A stretch of DNA of 62,707 nucleotides from Patescibacteria group bacterium (GTDB taxonomy: Bacteria; Patescibacteriota; Patescibacteriia; Patescibacteriales; UBA12465). The notes under the pieces are model-generated. The model had not been told where the DNA came from and did no database searches. It was given only the letters and a program-made list of their open reading frames with translations. The position numbers and the translations under genes are program-made. This document shows positions 5,037 through 37,459 of this stretch, piece after piece (position 1 is the first letter of the stretch; each line of letters starts with the position of its first letter). The DNA lies in NCBI GenBank assembly GCA_028681575.1, contig JAQUHX010000001.1, positions 1 through 62,707 on the forward strand, in the 5' to 3' direction.

Positions 5037-5714
5037 TTAAAAAATCTCAGCGCTATTATCAACAGTTTCCTCATTCAAGTCCTGGTTAAGCGGAAGTGAT
5101 AATTCTGGAAACTGAGCTGCTAAAATATCTTTATACATCACCATTAAATCTTCATCACTAAGAAGGTCGACTTGAGTAACATCTGCTCCGCCCTGAAGTA
5201 AAATTTGACGCATCGTTTGAGCATCACCCTCGCCAGACAAGGCTAAAATTAACAACTCTTCATCAATAAAACTGGCCGGAGAGGCGCTGGGAATTTCCAT
5301 ATCATCAATAACGATTTCCTCAGGATTAGCAGCTAATAAGCCGCAATTTGATCCTTCGGCACACAAAGGATCAGTACCACTCCTCACTTCATCAAAATCG
5401 GATATTCCATCACCATCAGTATCTGTTAAATAAGGTGAAGTTTTATAGACATTTATTTCATCCCGATCAATCAGCCCGTCACCATCGGTATCTTTACTTT
5501 TTTCTAATAAGGCCGCCGCTTCTCTTTCCCTAGCTGCCTGTTCGGCCGCCGCCACCTCCGCTTTATCTGGCTTAAAAGGACCACTTAAACGAGAGTTAAA
5601 TTGCCAAATCCAAACTCCCAAAATAACAAGCGCTAAAAAAGACAAACCAAAAACCGCATTTTTTCGACGACGCGGCAAAGAAGAAAGAGGATTCGAAGAA
5701 GGGATTTCAGCCAT
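5037..5714 (-). CDS. Membrane-anchored protein with two thrombospondin-type-3-like calcium-binding repeats
   Basis: N-terminal basic tail plus a TM helix (AVFGLSFLALVILGVWIW). Two DxDxDGxxDxxE motifs: DTDGDGLIDRDE and DTDGDGISDFDE. Stop is 43 nt upstream of the giant gene ATG on the same strand. Confidence 0.6.
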   Translation of the reverse strand: MAEIPSSNPLSSLPRRRKNAVFGLSFLALVILGVWIWQFNSRLSGPFKPDKAEVAAAEQAAREREAAALLEKSKDTDGDGLIDRDEINVYKTSPYLTDTDGDGISDFDEVRSGTDPLCAEGSNCGLLAANPEEIVIDDMEIPSASPASFIDEELLILALSGEGDAQTMRQILLQGGADVTQVDLLSDEDLMVMYKDILAAQFPELSLPLNQDLNEETVDNSAEIF

Positions 5715-9960: not shown

Positions 9961-9968
9961 TGTATAAT
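9961..9968 (+). promoter_or_regulatory. Extended -10 element (TGTATAAT) for the dsbA-like/por operon
   Basis: TGnTATAAT match 36 nt upstream of the ATG at 10004, in the divergent xth/dsbA-like spacer. A second TATAAT lies at 9974..9979. Confidence 0.4.
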
Positions 9969-10003
9969 GAAAGTATAATTTAAAAAGAGCAAAGAGACAA
10001 TTT

Positions 10004-10822
10004 ATGGCGAAAAATCTCGGAAACATGAGCCTTGAAGAGCGCGCTAAATATTTGGCTCTAAAGGAGAAATACAAAAAGAAACTAACCCCTTGGTACAAAC
10101 GCTGGTGGGGAGTCGTGTTAATTATTATCTCTGGATTAATTTTAACCGCCCTGGTTGCCGCTGGTTTTTATATCTCCAATCTGACCACTAAAATTATAAA
10201 TGGCCAAGAAAACGAACTTTTGCTTAATTATTCAGAAAACAGCTTTCTTAACACAATTAATCCTCAAGAAACAGATTGGAATCGAATTATTTACGGACCA
10301 GGGACAAATTACTTTTTAGGAGTTGACGATGCGCTAATAACAATTGTTGAATTTAGTGATTTTGCCTGTCCTTATTGCGCTAAAGCTCACAAAATTGCTG
10401 AACAAATAAATACTCGTTATCCAGACAAGGTAAAATTCATCTACCGCGACCTCCCTTTACATGAAAACTCAATTGATCTCGCCTTAGCAGCGCGTTGTGC
10501 GGGCGAACAAGGAAGATTTTGGGAAATGCATGACCAGATATTCGCCAACCAAAAGGCTCTACCGCTAGACTCTCTAGAGCTTAAACCAGTTATTTACGAT
10601 TTAGCCGGCACATTAGGAATTAATGCTGCTTTATTTGATAAATGTTTTTCCGAAAAAAAATACACCAGCAATATCGCTGTTGACCTAGAAGACGCAATCG
10701 CTCTAAAAACGGAAGGTACCCCAACCTGGTTTATCAACGGTCGAGTAATGACTGGTTACTTAGAAGACAGCGCCTTTATTACAATGATTGATAGCTATTT
10801 AGAAACTTTAGGCAAGGAATAA
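10004..10822 (+). CDS. Membrane-anchored DsbA-family thiol:disulfide oxidoreductase
   Basis: N-terminal TM helix (WWGVVLIIISGLILTALVAAGFYI), then a thioredoxin fold with the CxxC motif FACPYCAKAH. Stop is 3 nt before porC. Confidence 0.8.
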   Translation: MAKNLGNMSLEERAKYLALKEKYKKKLTPWYKRWWGVVLIIISGLILTALVAAGFYISNLTTKIINGQENELLLNYSENSFLNTINPQETDWNRIIYGPGTNYFLGVDDALITIVEFSDFACPYCAKAHKIAEQINTRYPDKVKFIYRDLPLHENSIDLALAARCAGEQGRFWEMHDQIFANQKALPLDSLELKPVIYDLAGTLGINAALFDKCFSEKKYTSNIAVDLEDAIALKTEGTPTWFINGRVMTGYLEDSAFITMIDSYLETLGKE

Positions 10823-10825
10823 TTT

Positions 10826-11410
10826 ATGTCTTTTTCTACCACTCAAGTCCGAGTTCATGGTCGCGGCGGTCAGGGCGTAGTAACCGCTACTGAGTTAATT
10901 GCCTTAGCGGCTACTTTTGATGGCCAAGAAGCACAGGCCTTCCCTTTTTTTGGCGTAGAACGAAGTGGCGCCCCAGTGGTTTCCTTTGCCCGCATATCAA
11001 AACAACCAATTAAAACTCGGGAACAAATTTATCGCCCTGATTATTTAATTATTCAAGATGAAACTTTAATCGGCGATAAAAATATCTTAGCGGGCGCTCA
11101 TAACCAAACTAAAATTATTATTAACTCCACTTTATCCCCGGCTGAAATTAAAAAACAATTAAAGCCTTTATCCCCAAAAGATAAAATCTACGAAAAAAAT
11201 ATTATTTGTACTCCGGCAACAGTTGTCGCCTTAGAGGTAATTGGAAAAAATTTAGTAAATACCGTGATTCTGTCAGCCCTAGCAAAAAATAGCTCTTTGT
11301 TTTCTTTAGATTCACTAAAAAAAGCGGTCCGTCTAAAGCTAGCTTCAAAGGGAAAAGCAATTGTAGAAAAAAACTTAAAAGCGATTAAATTAGTTTATGA
11401 AAAATACTAA
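10826..11410 (+). CDS. porC: Pyruvate/2-oxoacid:ferredoxin oxidoreductase gamma subunit
   Basis: VRVHGRGGQGVVTATELIALAA motif, 194 aa, overlaps porD by 14 nt. Confidence 0.9.
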   Translation: MSFSTTQVRVHGRGGQGVVTATELIALAATFDGQEAQAFPFFGVERSGAPVVSFARISKQPIKTREQIYRPDYLIIQDETLIGDKNILAGAHNQTKIIINSTLSPAEIKKQLKPLSPKDKIYEKNIICTPATVVALEVIGKNLVNTVILSALAKNSSLFSLDSLKKAVRLKLASKGKAIVEKNLKAIKLVYEKY

Positions 11411-11693
11411 AAAAAATAACTCTCAATTGCGACAACCAATCAGCCAAGCGACGAGTTCACTGAAAAATAAAACCGGCTCTTGGAGAATTTATCGGCCAGT
11501 GGTTGATTATGATATTTGTATTGGCTGTTCTTTGTGCGCAAAATTTTGTCCTGATGCCTGTATTAAAATGCGCTCTCAAAAAAAATATCAGGGGAAAATA
11601 AAACCAATAATCGACCTAGATTATTGCAAGGGCTGTGGTTTATGCGCTAAAGAATGCCCTGTAAAGGCAATAAAAATGCTTGAAGATTTTTAA
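11397..11693 (+). CDS. porD: Pyruvate:ferredoxin oxidoreductase delta subunit (2x[4Fe-4S])
   Basis: Two ferredoxin-type cysteine motifs: CIGCSLCAKFCP and CKGCGLCAKECP. Confidence 0.9.
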   Translation: MKNTKKNNSQLRQPISQATSSLKNKTGSWRIYRPVVDYDICIGCSLCAKFCPDACIKMRSQKKYQGKIKPIIDLDYCKGCGLCAKECPVKAIKMLEDF

Positions 11694-12831
11694 TATGAGT
11701 TCTACAAAAAAACAATTTTTAGAAGGAGCAGCGGCCATTGCCGAAGTGATTAATCGGATAAAACCAGAGGTGGTTAGTGCTTATCCAATTACCCCCCAGA
11801 CTCACATTGTTGAAGATTTAGCACAACGAGTCGCTGACAACAAATCTGCTTATGAATATGTTCGTGCTGAGAGTGAATTTGCCGCCGCTTCAATTGTTTT
11901 AGGAGCAAGCGCCACTGGGGCCAGAACTTATAGCGCCACCTCTTCCCAAGGACTACTTCTTATGGCTGAGGTATTATACAACATCTCAGGAATGCGCTTA
12001 CCAGTAGTAATGACTGTTGCCAACCGAGCGATTTCTGGACCAATTAATATTTGGAATGACCATTCCGATATTATGGCTTTGCGTGATTGTGGCGCAATTT
12101 TATTATTTGCCGAAACGCACCAGGAAGCAATCGATCAGCATGTGCTCGCTTATAAAATTGCTGAATTTTTAAATTTACCTGTTCTTGTTAATGTTGACGG
12201 CTTTATTATGACCCATGCTTTTAGTGGTTGCTATTTGCCAGATTCAAAAACAATTAAAAAATTCCTTCCTAAACGAAATTTAGTTAAAGGAGAATATCTT
12301 AATCCACAATTCCCAGTTACTATGGGTGTTTTTGGTGGCCCAGATTCTTATTATTTATTCCGTCAGTTACTCCAGAAAGATTTGTTAAACTCTTTAAAAA
12401 ATATTAAAAAAGAATACGCAGACTGGAAAAAGATATTCCCTACGCCTAAAGAATCAGGCACTCTAACGAGCAATGGCTTAATTGAATATTACGGCTCTAA
12501 GAAACCAGCGCTAGTCATTGTAGCTATGGGAACCATCTGTGGCACAATTAAAAAAGTAATTGATGATTATCCAAAAAAGATTGGTTTAATTAAAATTCGT
12601 TGCTACCGTCCTTTTCCAAGTGTCGAAATCAAACGAGCCCTTAAAAAAACAAAAAAGGTTCTGGTATTAGAAAAATGTTATGGCCTCGGCCATGAATCAC
12701 CATTAAAATTAGATTTAAGCGCTGCTCTTTGGGGTGAAAAAATTGATTTGCGGTCTGAAGTCTTAGGCTTGGGCGGGCAAGATGTGACCGAAAAAAAAAT
12801 TACGAACTTAATTAAACATTATGAAAAATAA
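11680..12831 (+). CDS. porA: Pyruvate:ferredoxin oxidoreductase alpha subunit
   Basis: 383 aa. N-terminal AYPITPQT motif typical of POR alpha. Overlaps porD by 14 nt. Confidence 0.9.
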   Translation: MKIFNMSSTKKQFLEGAAAIAEVINRIKPEVVSAYPITPQTHIVEDLAQRVADNKSAYEYVRAESEFAAASIVLGASATGARTYSATSSQGLLLMAEVLYNISGMRLPVVMTVANRAISGPINIWNDHSDIMALRDCGAILLFAETHQEAIDQHVLAYKIAEFLNLPVLVNVDGFIMTHAFSGCYLPDSKTIKKFLPKRNLVKGEYLNPQFPVTMGVFGGPDSYYLFRQLLQKDLLNSLKNIKKEYADWKKIFPTPKESGTLTSNGLIEYYGSKKPALVIVAMGTICGTIKKVIDDYPKKIGLIKIRCYRPFPSVEIKRALKKTKKVLVLEKCYGLGHESPLKLDLSAALWGEKIDLRSEVLGLGGQDVTEKKITNLIKHYEK

Positions 12832-13807
12832 ATTAACACTTTTTTTGTTATCCCTTATTTTCTTAAGTGTTGCCACCGCTAACGTTGCTTCTGGCTCTGA
12901 AAAAAATTTTACCTTTACCCCTCAGGTAGGAATTCCTGATTCTAATTTTCAAACTGACAAACAAATCCCCATTGGAGAAGAAAAAAACGGGACGACGAGC
13001 AGCACCCTCTTAGCTGATTATATCACCTCTTTTTATACTTACGCCCTTAATATTTTAGGGGTCTTAGCAGTTTTAATTTTAATGGCCGGAGGAGTGCAAT
13101 GGATTATCTCCGGCGGTAACACTAAAAAAATTGAAAGTGCTAAAAAAATGATTGGTGGTTCTATTTTTGGCGGAGCTTTACTTATTGGTTCTTACCTCAT
13201 TTTAAATACTATCAATCCCGACTTAACTAAACTTCCCGCTATCGAAATGCCCATGATTGATAAAATCGAAACTGGCTGCTGCGATGAGGCTTTAGACGAT
13301 GGAACCGCCAAAATCACCAACACAAAAAACTGTGCTGAAGGAAAGTTGCTCCCTAATCATGCTATTGGGGCGAGCGGTAAGTGCGAAGGAAAAATGTGCT
13401 GCATTCAATATACATATCAAAAAGATGCAGTTTTATCTTGCACCATGAAATTAGCAAGTAACTGTGGTCCTAAAAAGGATTCGGTAAATGATAGCGTTGT
13501 TTATGAAGTCGGGTTTATGGATTGTGAAAACTTAGCAATTTGCAAAGAGGCAAGCTATTTAAATGACGACTGCAAAGGAATAAAGGATGGAGAAAGACCT
13601 AAGGGGCCTTATGGGAGCAATATCTGGTGTTATGACGAAAAAATCCACTCAGGATATAAAGCTCAAATAGGGGAGCGTTGCGGCAACAACGAAGGATCTC
13701 TTTGTTTTGATATTAAGTTTACAAAATGTAATCGAGATATGGGTGGAAGACGTTGTGAAACTGGTAATTGCTGCGAAGTCCACTCTGACGGAACAATGAA
13801 AAAATAA
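12821..13807 (+). CDS. Exported VirB2/TrbC-pilin-like protein with an 18-Cys C-terminal domain, inserted between porA and porB
   Basis: Signal peptide, then two hydrophobic helices split by the basic loop SGGNTKKIESAKKMIGG (core about 13007..13225), then about 190 aa holding 18 Cys. Overlaps porA by 11 nt. Paralogous to 14679..15788. Confidence 0.7.
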   Translation: MKNKLTLFLLSLIFLSVATANVASGSEKNFTFTPQVGIPDSNFQTDKQIPIGEEKNGTTSSTLLADYITSFYTYALNILGVLAVLILMAGGVQWIISGGNTKKIESAKKMIGGSIFGGALLIGSYLILNTINPDLTKLPAIEMPMIDKIETGCCDEALDDGTAKITNTKNCAEGKLLPNHAIGASGKCEGKMCCIQYTYQKDAVLSCTMKLASNCGPKKDSVNDSVVYEVGFMDCENLAICKEASYLNDDCKGIKDGERPKGPYGSNIWCYDEKIHSGYKAQIGERCGNNEGSLCFDIKFTKCNRDMGGRRCETGNCCEVHSDGTMKK

Positions 13808-13809
13808 TT

Positions 13810-14682
13810 ATGAAGCAATACCAATCTACAAAAATATGTCCCGGTCATAATGCTTGTGCGGGCTGCGGTGAATTAACTGCTGTTCAAGCGGCTTTTCGCG
13901 GCTTACCAGAAAAAGTAATTATCACCAATGCTACCGGCTGCATTGAAGTAACAACCACTTCATACCCAGAAAGTTCTTGGGGGGTGCCCTGGATTCACTC
14001 CTTGTTTGAAAATGCCGCTGCTCTAGCTTCTGGAGTTTTAGCGGCTCTAAAAGTTAAGGGCGATACAAAAACAAGAGTGGTGGCAATCGGCGGCGATGGG
14101 GCAACTTATGATATTGGTTTAGGCCTTATTTCGGGAATGTGGGAAAGAGGTGAGCGTATTCTTTATATTTGTTTTGATACTGAAGCTTACTCAAATACTG
14201 GCATTCAAGCCTCAGGAGCAACCCCCTACGGGGCAGCGACAACAACTACTCCTAGTGGGAAAGTCACTTCTGGAGCACACACCCACAAAAAAGATTTATT
14301 AGGAATTGCTTTAGCTCACGGCTTAAAATATGTCGCTCAAAGCACAGCCGGCTTCCCGGATGATATTACCAACAAGGTGAAAAAGGCTCTAACGGTTGAT
14401 GGTCCTAGTTATCTGCAAATTTTATCACCTTGCATTCCAGGTTGGAAAATAAAAAATGACGAAGCTGGCGAACTTGGAAAACTAGCCGTTAAAACTGGTC
14501 TCTACCCCTTACTAGAATACATTAATGGAAAACTAAGTGCTTCCAGTATTAACGCTAAATTTACTCCGGCGCCAGTTCAAGATTATTTAAACAAGCAAGG
14601 ACGTTTTAAAAATTTAAAAACAGCTGACCTGGAAATAATTAAAAAAATTGCTGAACAAAATGTTTCTAAATACCGATTATGA
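13810..14682 (+). CDS. porB: Pyruvate:ferredoxin oxidoreductase beta subunit (TPP-binding)
   Basis: CPGHNACAGCG Fe-S motif and GDGATYDIG TPP motif, 290 aa. Confidence 0.9.
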   Translation: MKQYQSTKICPGHNACAGCGELTAVQAAFRGLPEKVIITNATGCIEVTTTSYPESSWGVPWIHSLFENAAALASGVLAALKVKGDTKTRVVAIGGDGATYDIGLGLISGMWERGERILYICFDTEAYSNTGIQASGATPYGAATTTTPSGKVTSGAHTHKKDLLGIALAHGLKYVAQSTAGFPDDITNKVKKALTVDGPSYLQILSPCIPGWKIKNDEAGELGKLAVKTGLYPLLEYINGKLSASSINAKFTPAPVQDYLNKQGRFKNLKTADLEIIKKIAEQNVSKYRL

Positions 14683-15788
14683 AAAAAATATTTTACACTT
14701 TTGTTTTTGTAATATTAGGAATAATTTTTTTGATAGTGCCGGCAAAGGCGGAAGATGTTTGCGCGTGGACTGTCGGGGCTACGGGGCAAATTGCGCACTA
14801 TCTTTACTGCCCTACTAATTATGAAGAGAAGCAAGGCGCTTGTGATGGAGAACATCCTGGTCAAGGCTACATTTGCTGTTGTACAAAAATTACAATAGAA
14901 CCAACAAAAGAGCCTAAATTCACAAACCCTTCAGACACTTGGCAGGTAAAAATTCCCGGTTTAGAAAGATTGAGTGAAGTTAATTGTGCAGACGGCGTTT
15001 GTAAAATTCCTTGGATTTCTGAATACTCTTTTGGCCTTTACAGTTTCGCCCTCAATATTGCTAGCATTTTAGCGGTTTTAATTTTAATGGCCGCCGGAGT
15101 AATTTGGATTATTTCCGGTGGCGACCAAGGAAAAATTACTAACGCCAAAAAAATGATTGCCGGCAGTGTTACTGGCCTAGTCTTGTTAGTCGGGGCCAAT
15201 TTAATTTTAAGTTTCATTAATCCTGATTTAATAAAATTAAAAAGTTTAGAAATTGCCTATATTGAACCCTTGGAAAATCTCCCCGATGCTGATGTTGGTC
15301 AATTAGGAGAAGTCGCCCAAGCAGCCAACCCCTACCAGAAAGCTTGCGAAGCTAGCAGAAAAGGAGATTATTCCGCATGCCTTGCTTTAGGAGAAACTCA
15401 ACCAGCCGGACTGGTAACAACAAAAGCTATTGGCGGCTCAACTGTTTTTGTTGAACAATCCGTTCTTAATGCTTATCTATCAGCAATAGAGTGCGTCAAA
15501 GAAAAAAATAATGGTAAATTTCCTTTTGGAATTAATAACGCCTGGCGATCTCCTAAAAGACAAGTAGAGATAAGAATTAGATATGAAAACGAAGGAAGAG
15601 CTAAAGACGCAGCGCTCCCTTGTTGTTCAAATCATGGGTCCGGACAAGCAATTGATATCAATTATTTTGAAGGGAAAATGAGCTGGTCTTATAACGAGAC
15701 GAGTCATTTAAGAGAATGCATGAACGCTAACGGCCTCTACGCTAAGATTAGCAAAGAGCCTTGGCATTGGTCACCAACCGGAAACTAA
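14679..15788 (+). CDS. Exported Cys-rich / VirB2-TrbC-pilin-like / M15 (VanY-type) zinc peptidase fusion protein
   Basis: Signal peptide (PAKA/ED). 8 Cys in the first about 85 mature residues. Pilin-like two-helix core (about 15012..15230) nearly identical in pattern to 12821..13807. C-terminal AWRSPKRQ, SNHGSGQAIDI and EPWHW motifs of D-Ala-D-Ala carboxypeptidase/VanY peptidases. ATGA overlap with porB. Confidence 0.75.
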   Translation: MKKIFYTFVFVILGIIFLIVPAKAEDVCAWTVGATGQIAHYLYCPTNYEEKQGACDGEHPGQGYICCCTKITIEPTKEPKFTNPSDTWQVKIPGLERLSEVNCADGVCKIPWISEYSFGLYSFALNIASILAVLILMAAGVIWIISGGDQGKITNAKKMIAGSVTGLVLLVGANLILSFINPDLIKLKSLEIAYIEPLENLPDADVGQLGEVAQAANPYQKACEASRKGDYSACLALGETQPAGLVTTKAIGGSTVFVEQSVLNAYLSAIECVKEKNNGKFPFGINNAWRSPKRQVEIRIRYENEGRAKDAALPCCSNHGSGQAIDINYFEGKMSWSYNETSHLRECMNANGLYAKISKEPWHWSPTGN

Positions 15789-15821
15789 AAAAAGACCCGA
15801 TAAAGTCGGGTCTTTTTTTTT
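15789..15821. terminator. Bidirectional intrinsic terminator between the por unit and rnhA
   Basis: AGACCCGA (15793..15800) pairs with TCGGGTCT (15806..15813), with an A-run before and a T9 run after. Confidence 0.8.
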
Positions 15822-21842: not shown

Positions 21843-23315
21843 TTAAAAATAATCAGCTAGTTTTTCCCAAAGTGTCCGTCCGGAAAATTCGACCTTAATT
21901 TTTTCAATTACCAACTGTCCTAAATCTTCAGGAGCCAAACCCGGAACGGAGATCATAAAGCTATATTTACCATTTTCTCGATAAGCTGCCTTGGTATTAA
22001 AAGTCGCACTTGCTTCTTTTAAACCACCATCTTTGACAAGCGGCTGATTGTAATCAGCAATAATATATTTTGTTTCATCATTAATAGTAAAGTAGCGACC
22101 CAAAATATCAAAATCAGGATTAAAGAAGGTTTCAGGGCTAAGAGAAAAAACGCCACCGGTTTCCAAAATAACGTCATCTTTTTCTAGAACAATTTGTTTA
22201 AGGCCAAGGGCTTTATGAGTAAATTCATAACGCTGATAAGGCTCGGCCAACAAAAATTCTTGGCTACCAAAAGAAATTTTCTGCCGACTGGCTGGATTAG
22301 CAGTTGTTAAGCTAATTAAATTACGATCAGTCCAAAAAATTAAAGGATGGGTTGTTGATTGCACTGGATAAACTCGACCAACAAAATTTAAAGCTCCCGG
22401 AGCATCACTAATTTCTTTAATAATTAAATCGGAGCTCCCTTTTATTTCCAGCTTCAAGGTTTCCTTTGTTGTTAAGGGTGGGCAAGAAAGAGTGGCTTCT
22501 TTAGTATAAGACTTGCCCTCGCCTTCACCGCCAGAGTTATCTTCAATTTTATCCTGACAAATTATTTGACTGCCCTTATAAACAGTCAAATAAACGGGGT
22601 CAGCTCGTTTATCTAAATTTAAATCAATTAATTCAAAAGAGAAAAATAATTTTTTATTAGCCTCAGCACTAAAATAAAATTGATGCGCCCCTTTTAAAGG
22701 AACAGTCCAAGGAACAAAATTTTCTAAAGGACCAGGAGTTCTTTTTTGTAAGATATCAAGCGCCGGCGGATTGTATAAAGCCAAACAAGAATTAAGCTTT
22801 CCGTCTGAGCAAATTTTTTCTGGGTTCTTATTTGCCACTTCCATAAATTCACTCACTGAAGAAAAAATTGGATCTTTCTGATACAGCGACACCTCTTTTT
22901 CCTGAAGTCTCTGCCAGTCGCTTAAATTATCTAAAGTTTTATTCTCTAAAGATTTAGTCTGGTAGCGCCAAACCAAATTATCAACTAAAACCCCAACTTC
23001 AATTACTGGCGTCGCACTAGTTAACTCATTTTTATAAGTAACAGTGACTTTGGCCTCAGAGAATGTTCGAGGCGTAAAAACAGAAAAATAAACAGGATCG
23101 CCAATCATAATGGCTGGAGAAGATTTTTCTTGACTAACCCGTTCAGCCGGAGTCAGCTGCCCAATAAAACCACGCCCTCCGAAGGGTTGGCTTAAATTTC
23201 GATATTCAAGTTCATAGCTCGCTCGTCCACCAGGAACAATTTTTGCAAACAAAATAAAGATGGCGAAAAAAAGCCAAAAAAACACTAAAACACCTTGGCG
23301 TCGGGATAATAACAT
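21843..23315 (-). CDS. Membrane-anchored extracytoplasmic protein of unknown function
   Basis: One N-terminal TM helix (VLVFFWLFFAIFILFAKIV), then about 455 aa with no motif I recognise. Lies between rpoC and murJ. Confidence 0.6.
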   Translation of the reverse strand: MLLSRRQGVLVFFWLFFAIFILFAKIVPGGRASYELEYRNLSQPFGGRGFIGQLTPAERVSQEKSSPAIMIGDPVYFSVFTPRTFSEAKVTVTYKNELTSATPVIEVGVLVDNLVWRYQTKSLENKTLDNLSDWQRLQEKEVSLYQKDPIFSSVSEFMEVANKNPEKICSDGKLNSCLALYNPPALDILQKRTPGPLENFVPWTVPLKGAHQFYFSAEANKKLFFSFELIDLNLDKRADPVYLTVYKGSQIICQDKIEDNSGGEGEGKSYTKEATLSCPPLTTKETLKLEIKGSSDLIIKEISDAPGALNFVGRVYPVQSTTHPLIFWTDRNLISLTTANPASRQKISFGSQEFLLAEPYQRYEFTHKALGLKQIVLEKDDVILETGGVFSLSPETFFNPDFDILGRYFTINDETKYIIADYNQPLVKDGGLKEASATFNTKAAYRENGKYSFMISVPGLAPEDLGQLVIEKIKVEFSGRTLWEKLADYF

Positions 23316-35162: not shown

Positions 35163-35191
35163 ATAATTCTATTATAGCAAATCGCCGCTGA

Positions 35192-36538: not shown

Positions 36539-37459
36539 ATGTCCAAACTACTTATCAAATCTTTAGATACTATCGTAAATGAAGCCCTGGATTTTTTTAG
36601 CAACAACCCGCCAGCAAAACTAAATCTAGCAAATTACAAGTTCCCTTTAGTAGTCGGTAGCGGCAACGCCTTTAATACTGGTAAAATTTTATTCGCTAAA
36701 AAGGCGGCAGTTTTTGCCAATGAAAGTAATTTTAAAAAAACTCTAAAAGATTACGAACACTTAATAAAAAATGGAACTATTCGTGAGGCGTTTATTATCT
36801 CCGCCTCTGGAGAAAAAGATTCCATCTGGGAAGCAAAAAAGGCAAAAGCGGCTGGCTTAAAAACAATTCTTTTAACTTGTGCTCTTGATTCTAGCGCTGC
36901 CCAGATTACTAATGAAGTTAAGGGCTACCGTAAATTAGCCGAGCCCTATACTTATAATTTCTCTACTTACTGCGGGATGATTCTAAGTGTCAGTGGAGAA
37001 AAAATTAAAAACATTAAAGAAGTTTTAAAAAAATTAAAAACTCCGGCAAATTTTAGCACTTATAAATCTTATTCATTTATACTCCCTGATGAATTTGGCG
37101 AGTTAGCCCCCATGCTAGATATTAAGCGTCACGAACTTTTTGGGCCTAAACTTTCTTTGCGGGCTTTTACTTTCGGAGAAGCGCGCCATGCCAAATTCGT
37201 TGTTCGCGACCCAAAAGAACTAGTTATCAGCTTTGGCGCCAATAAGTTTTTCGGTAGCCCTAATAGCCGCTGGGAAATTAATCTACCTAAAAATATCGGC
37301 TACGCCGGAATGATGGCTTTAACTTATTTTCTAGTCGGACAAATCCAAAATAATCAACCCGACTATTTTAGAAAAAATATTGAACGCTTTTGCAAAGACG
37401 ATGGTCCCAAAGCCTATGGTAGCAATAAGCCGTTCTCAGTTATTGTTCCGGGTAATTAG
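36539..37459 (+). CDS. Hypothetical protein, possibly a SIS-fold sugar-phosphate-binding/isomerase-like protein
   Basis: VVGSGNAFNTG and ISASGEKDS...AGLKTILLT resemble SIS-domain motifs. The match is weak and there is no HMM confirmation. Confidence 0.3.
   Translation: MSKLLIKSLDTIVNEALDFFSNNPPAKLNLANYKFPLVVGSGNAFNTGKILFAKKAAVFANESNFKKTLKDYEHLIKNGTIREAFIISASGEKDSIWEAKKAKAAGLKTILLTCALDSSAAQITNEVKGYRKLAEPYTYNFSTYCGMILSVSGEKIKNIKEVLKKLKTPANFSTYKSYSFILPDEFGELAPMLDIKRHELFGPKLSLRAFTFGEARHAKFVVRDPKELVISFGANKFFGSPNSRWEINLPKNIGYAGMMALTYFLVGQIQNNQPDYFRKNIERFCKDDGPKAYGSNKPFSVIVPGN

Follow-up and report, generated by a model that had tools for sequence, protein, structure and literature searches.

A probable por-type operon interleaved with two modular VirB2-like pilin genes in a lineage of Patescibacteria

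A stretch of 62,707 nucleotides (nt) from a Patescibacteria group bacterium (GenBank assembly GCA_028681575.1, contig JAQUHX010000001.1, positions 1 to 62,707 of the forward strand; the whole stretch is called the window below) was analysed around a seven-gene unit. Seven tightly packed open reading frames (ORFs) on the + strand at 10004–15788 encode, in this order, a DsbA-like protein, PorC, PorD, PorA, a pilin-like protein termed X, PorB and a second pilin-like protein termed Y. The genes of what is likely a pyruvate:ferredoxin oxidoreductase (POR) are interleaved here with genes for exported proteins, and the gamma-delta-alpha-beta contiguity of por genes is broken by X, which separates alpha from beta in the window as it does in 78/78 related loci that are informative. 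It seems reasonably probable to us that the genes form one composite operon, transcribed together, which arose once and was kept in a Falkowbacteria-type lineage of Patescibacteria; this reading implies no biochemistry linking POR to the pilins. The features are listed with bit scores and, where given, cutoffs.

9961–9979, + strand: promoter-like element, TGTATAAT at 9961–9968 (TG abutting TATAAT) and a second TATAAT at 9974–9979
10004–10822, + strand: DsbA-like thiol:disulfide oxidoreductase (Thioredoxin_4 PF13462, 98.6 bits, cutoff 23.2; DSBA PF01323, 63.3 bits)
10826–11410, + strand: porC, gamma subunit (PF01558, 125.9 bits; TIGR02175, 172 bits, cutoff 81)
11397–11693, + strand: porD, delta subunit (TIGR02179, 99.5 bits, cutoff 60; Fer4 families also match)
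11695–12831, + strand (alternative TTG start at 11680): porA, alpha subunit (POR_N, 218.6 bits; PFOR_II, 72.9 bits)
12821–13807, + strand: X, modular VirB2-like pilin of 328 amino acids (aa) (T4SS_pilin PF18895, 24.6 bits, cutoff 26.6)
13810–14682, + strand: porB, beta subunit, binding thiamine pyrophosphate (TPP) (TPP_enzyme_C PF02775, 68.1 bits; PRK11865, 336.6 bits)
14679–15788, + strand: Y, modular VirB2-like pilin of 369 aa (T4SS_pilin PF18895, 32.5 bits, cutoff 26.6)
15789–15821, no strand assigned: bidirectional intrinsic-terminator-like hairpin (A-run, GACCCG-ATAAAGT-CGGGTC, T-run) between Y and a convergent RNase H gene

The unit is flanked on both sides by blocks of − strand housekeeping genes. 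An earlier reading made from the letters of the window alone (the sequence-only reading) had given ORF coordinates and gene identities that agree with the ORF list, Pfam and NCBIfam, and the interleaved order and tight packing it described were seen again when the junctions were read directly. These are a 3-nt gap (dsbA/porC), a 14-nt overlap (porC/porD), an A-rich 11-nt overlap (porA/X), a 2-nt gap (X/porB) and an ATGA overlap (porB/Y), all five as it had listed them. A second 14-nt overlap, which it had placed between porD and porA, did not stand: it requires the TTG start at 11680, and the alternative ATG at 11695 yields a PorA of 378 aa. PorA of the orthologous locus L001 is likewise called as 378 aa, its gene separated from porD by 1 nt; because of this call and the usual AT-rich start context porA of the window most likely begins at ATG 11695, so that the porD/porA junction is a 1-nt gap. 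A PorA–X fusion by programmed frameshifting at the 11-nt overlap was ruled out, as the length and sequence of this junction vary across loci. A Shine–Dalgarno-like motif precedes only 1 of the 28 gene starts checked in the window, so that the organism is essentially without such motifs; upstream of the starts the sequence is AT-rich and often has ATT or TTT at its end, a pattern that points to initiation independent of Shine–Dalgarno pairing in the window genes.

For comparison with related loci, a PorB-alignment scan with one genome per species was used; it returned 432 relatives, and the best 80 loci (PorB 62–85% identical; mostly Candidatus Falkowbacteria or Patescibacteria group) were fetched. 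Their ORFs were labelled by using the window proteins and a hidden Markov model (HMM) of the pilin core, and the first ATG was taken as an approximate gene start. The porA–porB interval holds one or two pilin-core genes in 78/78 informative loci, and DsbA heads the unit in every locus whose upstream sequence can be read. Most loci have another pilin gene, or two, after porB; several have none there. Six independent contexts of X orthologues (down to 36% identity) all read DsbA-PorC-PorD-PorA-X-PorB, with Y after PorB in five of them (not in L008), and share their flanks, namely leucyl-tRNA synthetase and exonuclease genes upstream and RNase H, RecJ, LepA and MurJ genes downstream; the same order and flanks recur in the best 80 species-level genomes. 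Median junctions are 2 nt (DsbA>PorC), −11 nt (PorC>PorD), 4 nt (PorD>PorA), 1 nt (PorA>pilin), 7 nt (pilin>PorB) and −4 nt (PorB>pilin), with larger gaps of 82–233 nt around X in L008, L017 and L075–L079. Median identity to the window falls from PorB (69%) through PorA (56%) and the pilin core (49%) to DsbA (40%). The ectodomains can be aligned by BLAST in only 8 loci for X and 13 for Y, and their cysteine positions are nonetheless conserved; judged by these patterns, both modules look functional.

The comparison makes the interleaving a lineage-wide trait, and one of operon layout rather than of the enzyme. The sequence-only reading had called the order unusual; it is widespread within the lineage, and X is already annotated as 'pilin' directly beside a TPP-dependent PorB in public records (consecutive entries MFA6369411.1 and MFA6369410.1). 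No published account of por genes interleaved with pilin genes was found in the literature searched. One public record of a nearly identical Y carries the name Candidatus Falkowbacteria.

Some loci required individual inspection. L084, which seemed an exception with contiguous porCDAB and neither DsbA nor pilin, was rejected as such and counted among the 78 after N-masked stretches had been found to fuse PorA to an X-like ORF and to hide the dsbA region. In a 99%-identical strain X and PorB seem shortened, to 81 and 263 aa; the cause is a 100-N scaffold gap (about 13062–13891 of the window), not a deletion. This gap (GCA_028694515.1, L092:6113–6212) starts a few bases before an 18-nt repeat shared by X and Y and has its other end in porB; the repeat or strain variability may make X difficult to assemble. 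In L008, where Y is missing after porB, RNase H and RecJ are separated by two unannotated − strand genes (10488–12247) of 207 and 375 aa.

The relationship of X and Y is carried by a two-helix core of 95 residues, across which they are 52% identical (E 3e-27); this bears out their earlier description as paralogues, and no other ORF of this type was found in the 62.7-kb window. Of the Pfam families only PF18895 is common to both when X and Y are searched with HMMs; Y exceeds its gathering score of 26.6 bits and X falls just below. The family is matched (E <= 0.001) by 81 of the 86 X-position orthologues, and T4SS_pilin also by 61 of the 71 proteins in the Y-position alignment, the window Y included. 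Orthologue alignments and AlphaFold models give both proteins a common plan of signal peptide, short Q-V-x-I-P motif (within FTPQVGIP in X), two hydrophobic helices, I-N-P-D-L motif and a large domain which is predicted to lie outside the cell. The cores are found at about 12986–13270 (X) and 14991–15275 (Y), and the AlphaFold 2 (AF2) helices span residues 63–96 and 101–131 of X and 111–145 and 150–180 of Y. A short lysine-rich loop, GGNTKKIESAKKM, joins the helices into a hairpin of the VirB2/TrbC type; the core itself is free of cysteine. The X fold resembles the Aeropyrum conjugation pilin 8dfu weakly and not significantly (E 7, template modelling score 0.49). No type IV secretion genes (VirB4, VirB6 or others) were found in the window, Pfam searches with its larger ORFs giving housekeeping genes only, and the hairpin could equally be a mere membrane anchor for the ectodomains and not a pilus subunit. 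The description of X and Y as exported, Cys-rich and pilin-like agrees with their families and orthologue alignments, and to Y a tethered M15 cell-wall peptidase can be added.

Distances among 160 cores were calculated and simple neighbour-joining trees were built. The cores of the X position are fully separated from those of the Y position: in 158/158 cases the nearest neighbour belongs to the same class, the remaining pair consisting of an extra copy in L082 and the X of that same locus. Because the cores form two separate groups, X and Y are regarded as ancient paralogues and the interleaved order as older than the species radiation, and on this sequence evidence the interleaving arose once, in the ancestor of the lineage. 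The near-identical X/Y DNA of the sequence-only reading comes down to an 18-nt string, GTTTTAATTTTAATGGCC, present exactly twice (13070–13087 and 15075–15092; 0 expected by chance). Recent X–Y gene conversion, which this string had brought to mind, was ruled out by the separate ancient groups and by an overall core DNA identity of only ~58%.

Additional pilin copies (X2, Y2, and the one that lies between porD and porA in L082) cluster with the pilins of their own locus, which shows local duplication to be ongoing; a duplication-loss origin is therefore plausible. By this route the porB-pilin segment would have been duplicated in tandem and the first porB copy then lost (A-B-Y-B-Y to A-Y-B-Y). 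The added pilin-core gene of L082 (3941–4651), which is most similar to the X of that locus, looks like a second, independent interleaving inside a por operon. Distant pilin homologues in contigs of Parcubacteria and Magasanikbacteria (L089–L091 included) stand in tandem arrays with M23, 3D and M15_4 partners and without por.

Co-transcription is suggested by the ends of the unit. The promoter-like element lies in the 65-nt gap between a divergent exonuclease gene and dsbA. Among the related loci TGnTAnnnT is present in 61/68 and TATAAT in 65/68, 26–110 nt upstream of dsbA, and the full TGnTATAAT occurs within 150 nt upstream of dsbA in 55/67; before each of the genes for PorC, PorD, PorA, the X-position pilin, PorB and the Y-position pilin, TGnTATAAT was found in only 0–2 of 69–83 loci. 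The extended −10 element that had been proposed at 9961–9968 is present, and its support as a promoter comes from this conservation and not from the single sequence. The terminator proposed at 15789–15821 is likewise visible on reading as a hairpin with a T-run, although an automatic scan missed the hairpin; in 42/78 loci a comparable hairpin with T-run stands behind the last gene of the + strand, and the others mostly run directly into the convergent RNase H gene. No Rfam element, riboswitches included, was detected in the seven-gene unit, nor any terminator-like hairpin at the internal junctions of the window. We infer a single co-transcribed unit, and the co-expression that the sequence-only reading had put forward gains credibility from an extended −10 motif specific to dsbA.

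Families of all four Por/Vor subunits (gamma, delta, alpha and beta) were identified, with standard lengths and intact cofactor motifs. The PorD translation contains two [4Fe-4S] motifs of the CxxCxxCxxxCP type, CIGCSLCAKFCP and CKGCGLCAKECP. The best solved relative of PorB is 9bt4_C (E 2e-80), the beta subunit of a four-subunit pyruvate:ferredoxin oxidoreductase, and in PorB alignment A1 the [4Fe-4S] cysteines C16, C19, C44 and C208 and the TPP motif G95-D96-G97 are invariant. Pyruvate-synthase models score best (PorA_Arch 372 vs. cutoff 550; PRK11865 for PorB 337 vs. 405; PRK08534 for PorC 185 vs. 225); because they do so below the equivalog cutoffs of NCBIfam, pyruvate is the likely, not the proven, substrate of what is predicted to be a four-subunit 2-oxoacid:ferredoxin oxidoreductase.

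Irregular por genes were also encountered. porA is divided into two ORFs at L003 (=L019; 2320–3460), L057 (1631–2805) and L062 (2–1110), which represents either frameshifts from sequencing errors or incipient pseudogenes. Among longer PorB relatives (P0245, P0250, P0253 and P0261; ~800–860 aa) some align to the query in two stretches; residues 19–133 of P0261 and 663–821 of P0245, taken together, suggest PorB halves ~530 residues apart, which could be due to an intein-like insertion or a fusion. P0244, the top representative in the PorB search, was discarded as an outgroup, being an unrelated PorB fusion with cytochrome-b5-like and metallo-beta-lactamase-like parts.

The large domains of X and Y differ. 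The X ectodomain (13271–13804) contains 18 cysteines in 178 residues; their positions are conserved in alignment A2 and the domain is otherwise highly variable. It gave no significant match in PDB (fold and profile searches), BFVD or Pfam (E <= 10), and none of the 86 X-position proteins (0/86) matches any Pfam family besides T4SS_pilin; it is possibly an adhesin or host-contact domain. Y (14 cysteines) consists of signal peptide, small Cys-rich N-terminal domain, core and a C-terminal M15B (VanY/LdcB-like) peptidase domain at about 15291–15785. Its AF2 model (predicted local distance difference test score 81) retrieved VanXYc, LdcB and VanY with Foldseek (E 1e-5 to 7e-4, probability 1.0), a profile search with alignment A5 retrieved YodJ/LdcB (E 2e-5), and residues R290, H319, D326 and E360-P-W-H363 are invariant, with H319, D326, E360 and H363 as zinc ligands and catalytic residues. 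The window Y reaches 19.4 bits with Pfam VanY, under the gathering score of 25; 16 of the 71 Y-position proteins match this family (best E 2.6e-12). By sequence and model the domain is assigned as a VanY/LdcB-type M15 peptidoglycan peptidase. A recognisable peptidoglycan hydrolase domain is carried by ~40/71 Y-position proteins (VanY 16, Peptidase_M15 10, C39_2 4, NlpC/P60 4, 3D 3, and one each of M15_4, Amidase_5, SLT and SLT_3); the catalytic domain is swapped between species. CxxC, CxxCH or ferredoxin-like motifs were not found in the Cys-rich domains of X and Y.

In the DsbA-like protein a single transmembrane helix separates a cytoplasmic tail at the N terminus from a thioredoxin domain outside the cell, the active site of which is CPYC. 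In alignment A7 (seven loci) C122-P-Y-C125, the cis-Pro loop T239-P240 and a second cysteine pair, C165/C214, are invariant. The N-terminal 36 residues (10004–10110) are more conserved than much of the thioredoxin domain; tail residues L10, R13, K15, K20, K25, P29-W30-Y31 and W34-W35-G36 are invariant in the seven loci. The seven-gene unit holds no DsbB, BdbC or VKOR partner, the rest of the window and the genome not having been searched for one. The cysteine richness of X and Y fits a need for DsbA, and the enzyme probably oxidises their ectodomains. Disulfide oxidoreductases are co-encoded with pilus or secretion genes in other systems, namely BdbDC for ComGC in Bacillus and the thioredoxin-like TraF/TrbB of F-type conjugation. 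The likeness lies in a DsbA/thioredoxin-fold gene beside genes of cysteine-containing pilus proteins; here, in contrast, the gene of the oxidoreductase comes first in the unit, and a cytoplasmic enzyme is encoded in the same operon.

Two known arrangements, the por operon and the pilin array of Patescibacteria, appear here in a variant form shared by the whole lineage. The por genes are contiguous in porCDAB of Helicobacter pylori and in the Thermotoga and archaeal por clusters (porGDAB; Pyrococcus). These and the present unit share the four subunit families, the gamma-delta-alpha-beta order and short overlaps; unlike them, the unit has a pilin-like gene between alpha and beta, a second after beta and a DsbA-like gene before gamma. 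VirB2-like pilins of the PF18895 family are widespread in Patescibacteria, and their genes are essential in Southlakia, a cultivated epibiotic Patescibacterium (PMC10633639). The VirB2-like (PF18895/PF04956) pilin arrays of Patescibacteria share the Pfam family with X and Y, and those of L089–L091 also have hydrolase fusions, whereas the separators in the present unit are subunits of a central metabolic enzyme and X and Y, at 328 and 369 aa, are large and modular compared with pilins of about 100–150 aa. Modular pilins, for example PilB of Streptococcus sanguinis, carry a functional module grafted on a pilin module (PMC8179133). Like these, X and Y combine a small pilin or anchor module with an adhesive or enzymatic module for surface display; PilB-type proteins are, however, type IV pilins with class III signal peptides, and X and Y have an unrelated VirB2-type hairpin and ordinary signal peptides.

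In the reading that we favour, one conserved extended −10 promoter would drive all seven genes and the bidirectional terminator would close the unit. PorC, PorD, PorA and PorB would assemble in the cytoplasm into an ordinary 2-oxoacid (most likely pyruvate):ferredoxin oxidoreductase, and outside the cell the membrane-anchored DsbA-like enzyme would make the disulfides of X and Y. With signal peptide and hairpin serving as membrane anchor or pilus subunit, X would display its fast-evolving Cys-rich domain and Y a cell-wall hydrolase. The arrangement would probably go back to an ancient duplication or insertion, kept unchanged in a static genome, and would persist as the genes abut or overlap behind one promoter in a syntenically static neighbourhood and as both modules are needed; the surface module would in consequence be obligatorily co-expressed with the central fermentative enzyme.

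Several observations weigh against this reading or narrow its reach. Within the window alone the promoter motif occurs at chance frequency (20 promoter-like sites in a scan vs. 18 expected), and internal promoters of another type are possible, the evidence being of sequence only. As Shine–Dalgarno motifs are lacking, ribosome-binding sites give no argument for translational coupling. The duplication-loss route is not supported by any remnant of a lost porB copy. The absence of any loss of X in 78 species-level loci may exceed what neutral synteny predicts, and since X is never lost from its position there is room for a real functional tie. The gene-order survey covers the best 80 of 432 PorB relatives; the PorB relatives listed by a word-indexed search are all at least 69% identical, and the nearest outgroup PorB from an exhaustive search of representatives, at most 51% identical, was seen without genomic context.

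Such a tie could take the form of a 'feeding module' for taking up nutrients from a host or from cell-wall debris, in which X would be the adhesin, Y would release peptidoglycan fragments (D-Ala/L-Ala to pyruvate) and selection would keep X and Y co-regulated with por, attachment or harvesting changing in step with pyruvate oxidation; we regard this as unlikely, though the least so of the other explanations considered here. Co-regulation by operon membership may serve reduced genomes with few regulators. A feeding role would also suit the retention of X in 78/78 loci although pilins duplicate and swap domains, the consistent occupation of the Y position by a peptidoglycan hydrolase, M15 enzymes of the VanY/LdcB type releasing terminal alanine, and the essential VirB2-like pilin genes of the cultivated epibiont (PMC10633639). 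The type of hydrolase varies, however (NlpC/P60, SLT, 3D, C39-like), which leaves no specific alanine-to-pyruvate logic; Y is missing after porB in several loci, the unit includes no alanine-converting enzyme or transporter, and the flanking housekeeping genes are equally syntenic, so that conservation alone is no proof of selection on the interleaving. The broader proposition that the interleaving is functional, POR acting in concert with the surface module through either spatial coupling or a feeding regulon, appears distinctly doubtful to us. Under spatial coupling, X and Y would be inserted into the membrane while being translated and so hold the polycistronic mRNA there, and POR would be assembled where the cell touches its host and takes in scavenged substrates; under a feeding regulon, the pilin-borne cell-wall hydrolase would supply the carbon that POR oxidises.

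It is improbable, in our judgement, that the genes are adjacent without being co-expressed, with internal promoters, attenuators or RNA processing uncoupling X and Y and the interleaving a leftover of an old insertion. Sigma-70-like hexamers do occur inside the genes of this AT-rich region, at chance frequency, larger gaps are present around X in L008, L017 and L075–L079 (82–233 nt), and membrane proteins are usually required in amounts different from those of cytoplasmic subunits. The contrast between 55/67 loci with TGnTATAAT before dsbA and 0–2 of 69–83 before each internal gene speaks against it, as do junctions that are typically overlaps or gaps of <=7 nt and the lack of Rfam elements in the region and of hairpins at the internal junctions of the window. 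A physical or redox coupling, with X and/or Y as membrane partners of POR (docking, electron or disulfide relay) in a membrane-associated POR variant, is very improbable. The X gene does fall right between those for alpha and beta, the subunits that make up the catalytic core, and the cytoplasmic tail of the DsbA-like protein is unusually conserved. To our knowledge Patescibacteria lack classical respiratory chains, and unusual electron sinks are conceivable in them. Yet only a loop of about 12 residues is cytoplasmic in X and Y, and its motif, S-G-G-x-x-x-K-I-x-x-A-K, is also present in homologues that are not por-adjacent, such as P0116 (alignment A3). A cysteine-free core, Cys-rich domains that lack CxxC, CxxCH and ferredoxin-like motifs and are predicted to be external, and Por subunits of standard length and motifs likewise argue against such a coupling.

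The tiny genomes, few regulators and mostly uncultured state of Patescibacteria make gene order one of the few clues to their physiology. This lineage joins its main fermentative enzyme to an enzyme that forms disulfides and to two surface proteins, both modular and VirB2-like, in an enzyme operon that is split by an unrelated gene and is still split in at least 78 species-level lineages. The layout provides a clean genomic marker for the lineage, defines two ancient families of modular VirB2-like pilins and offers a testable idea, namely that pyruvate oxidation is co-expressed with host contact or cell-wall attack. Interest would be high only if the POR–pilin association proves functional, in which case an ultrasmall epibiont would have in this operon a minimal attach-harvest-ferment unit; were the link no more than historical, the finding would be a curiosity of operon evolution and not new biology.

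Elsewhere in the window, a giant ORF on the − strand (1 to about 5000) is cut by the window start. Its orthologues measure 2569 aa in L001, 2723 aa in L004 (with a weak CBM_4_9 match) and 2019–2583 aa in L006 and L007; it is adjoined by a conserved gene of about 220 aa (5037–5714) with a weak TSP3_bac match. ORFs of 490 aa (21843–23315, − strand) and 306 aa (36539–37459, + strand) have no Pfam match at E <= 1e-4. On the − strand TGCTATAAT (35171–35179) ends 8 nt before the ATG (35162) of an FtsK gene, the mRNA of which could be leaderless or have a very short leader.

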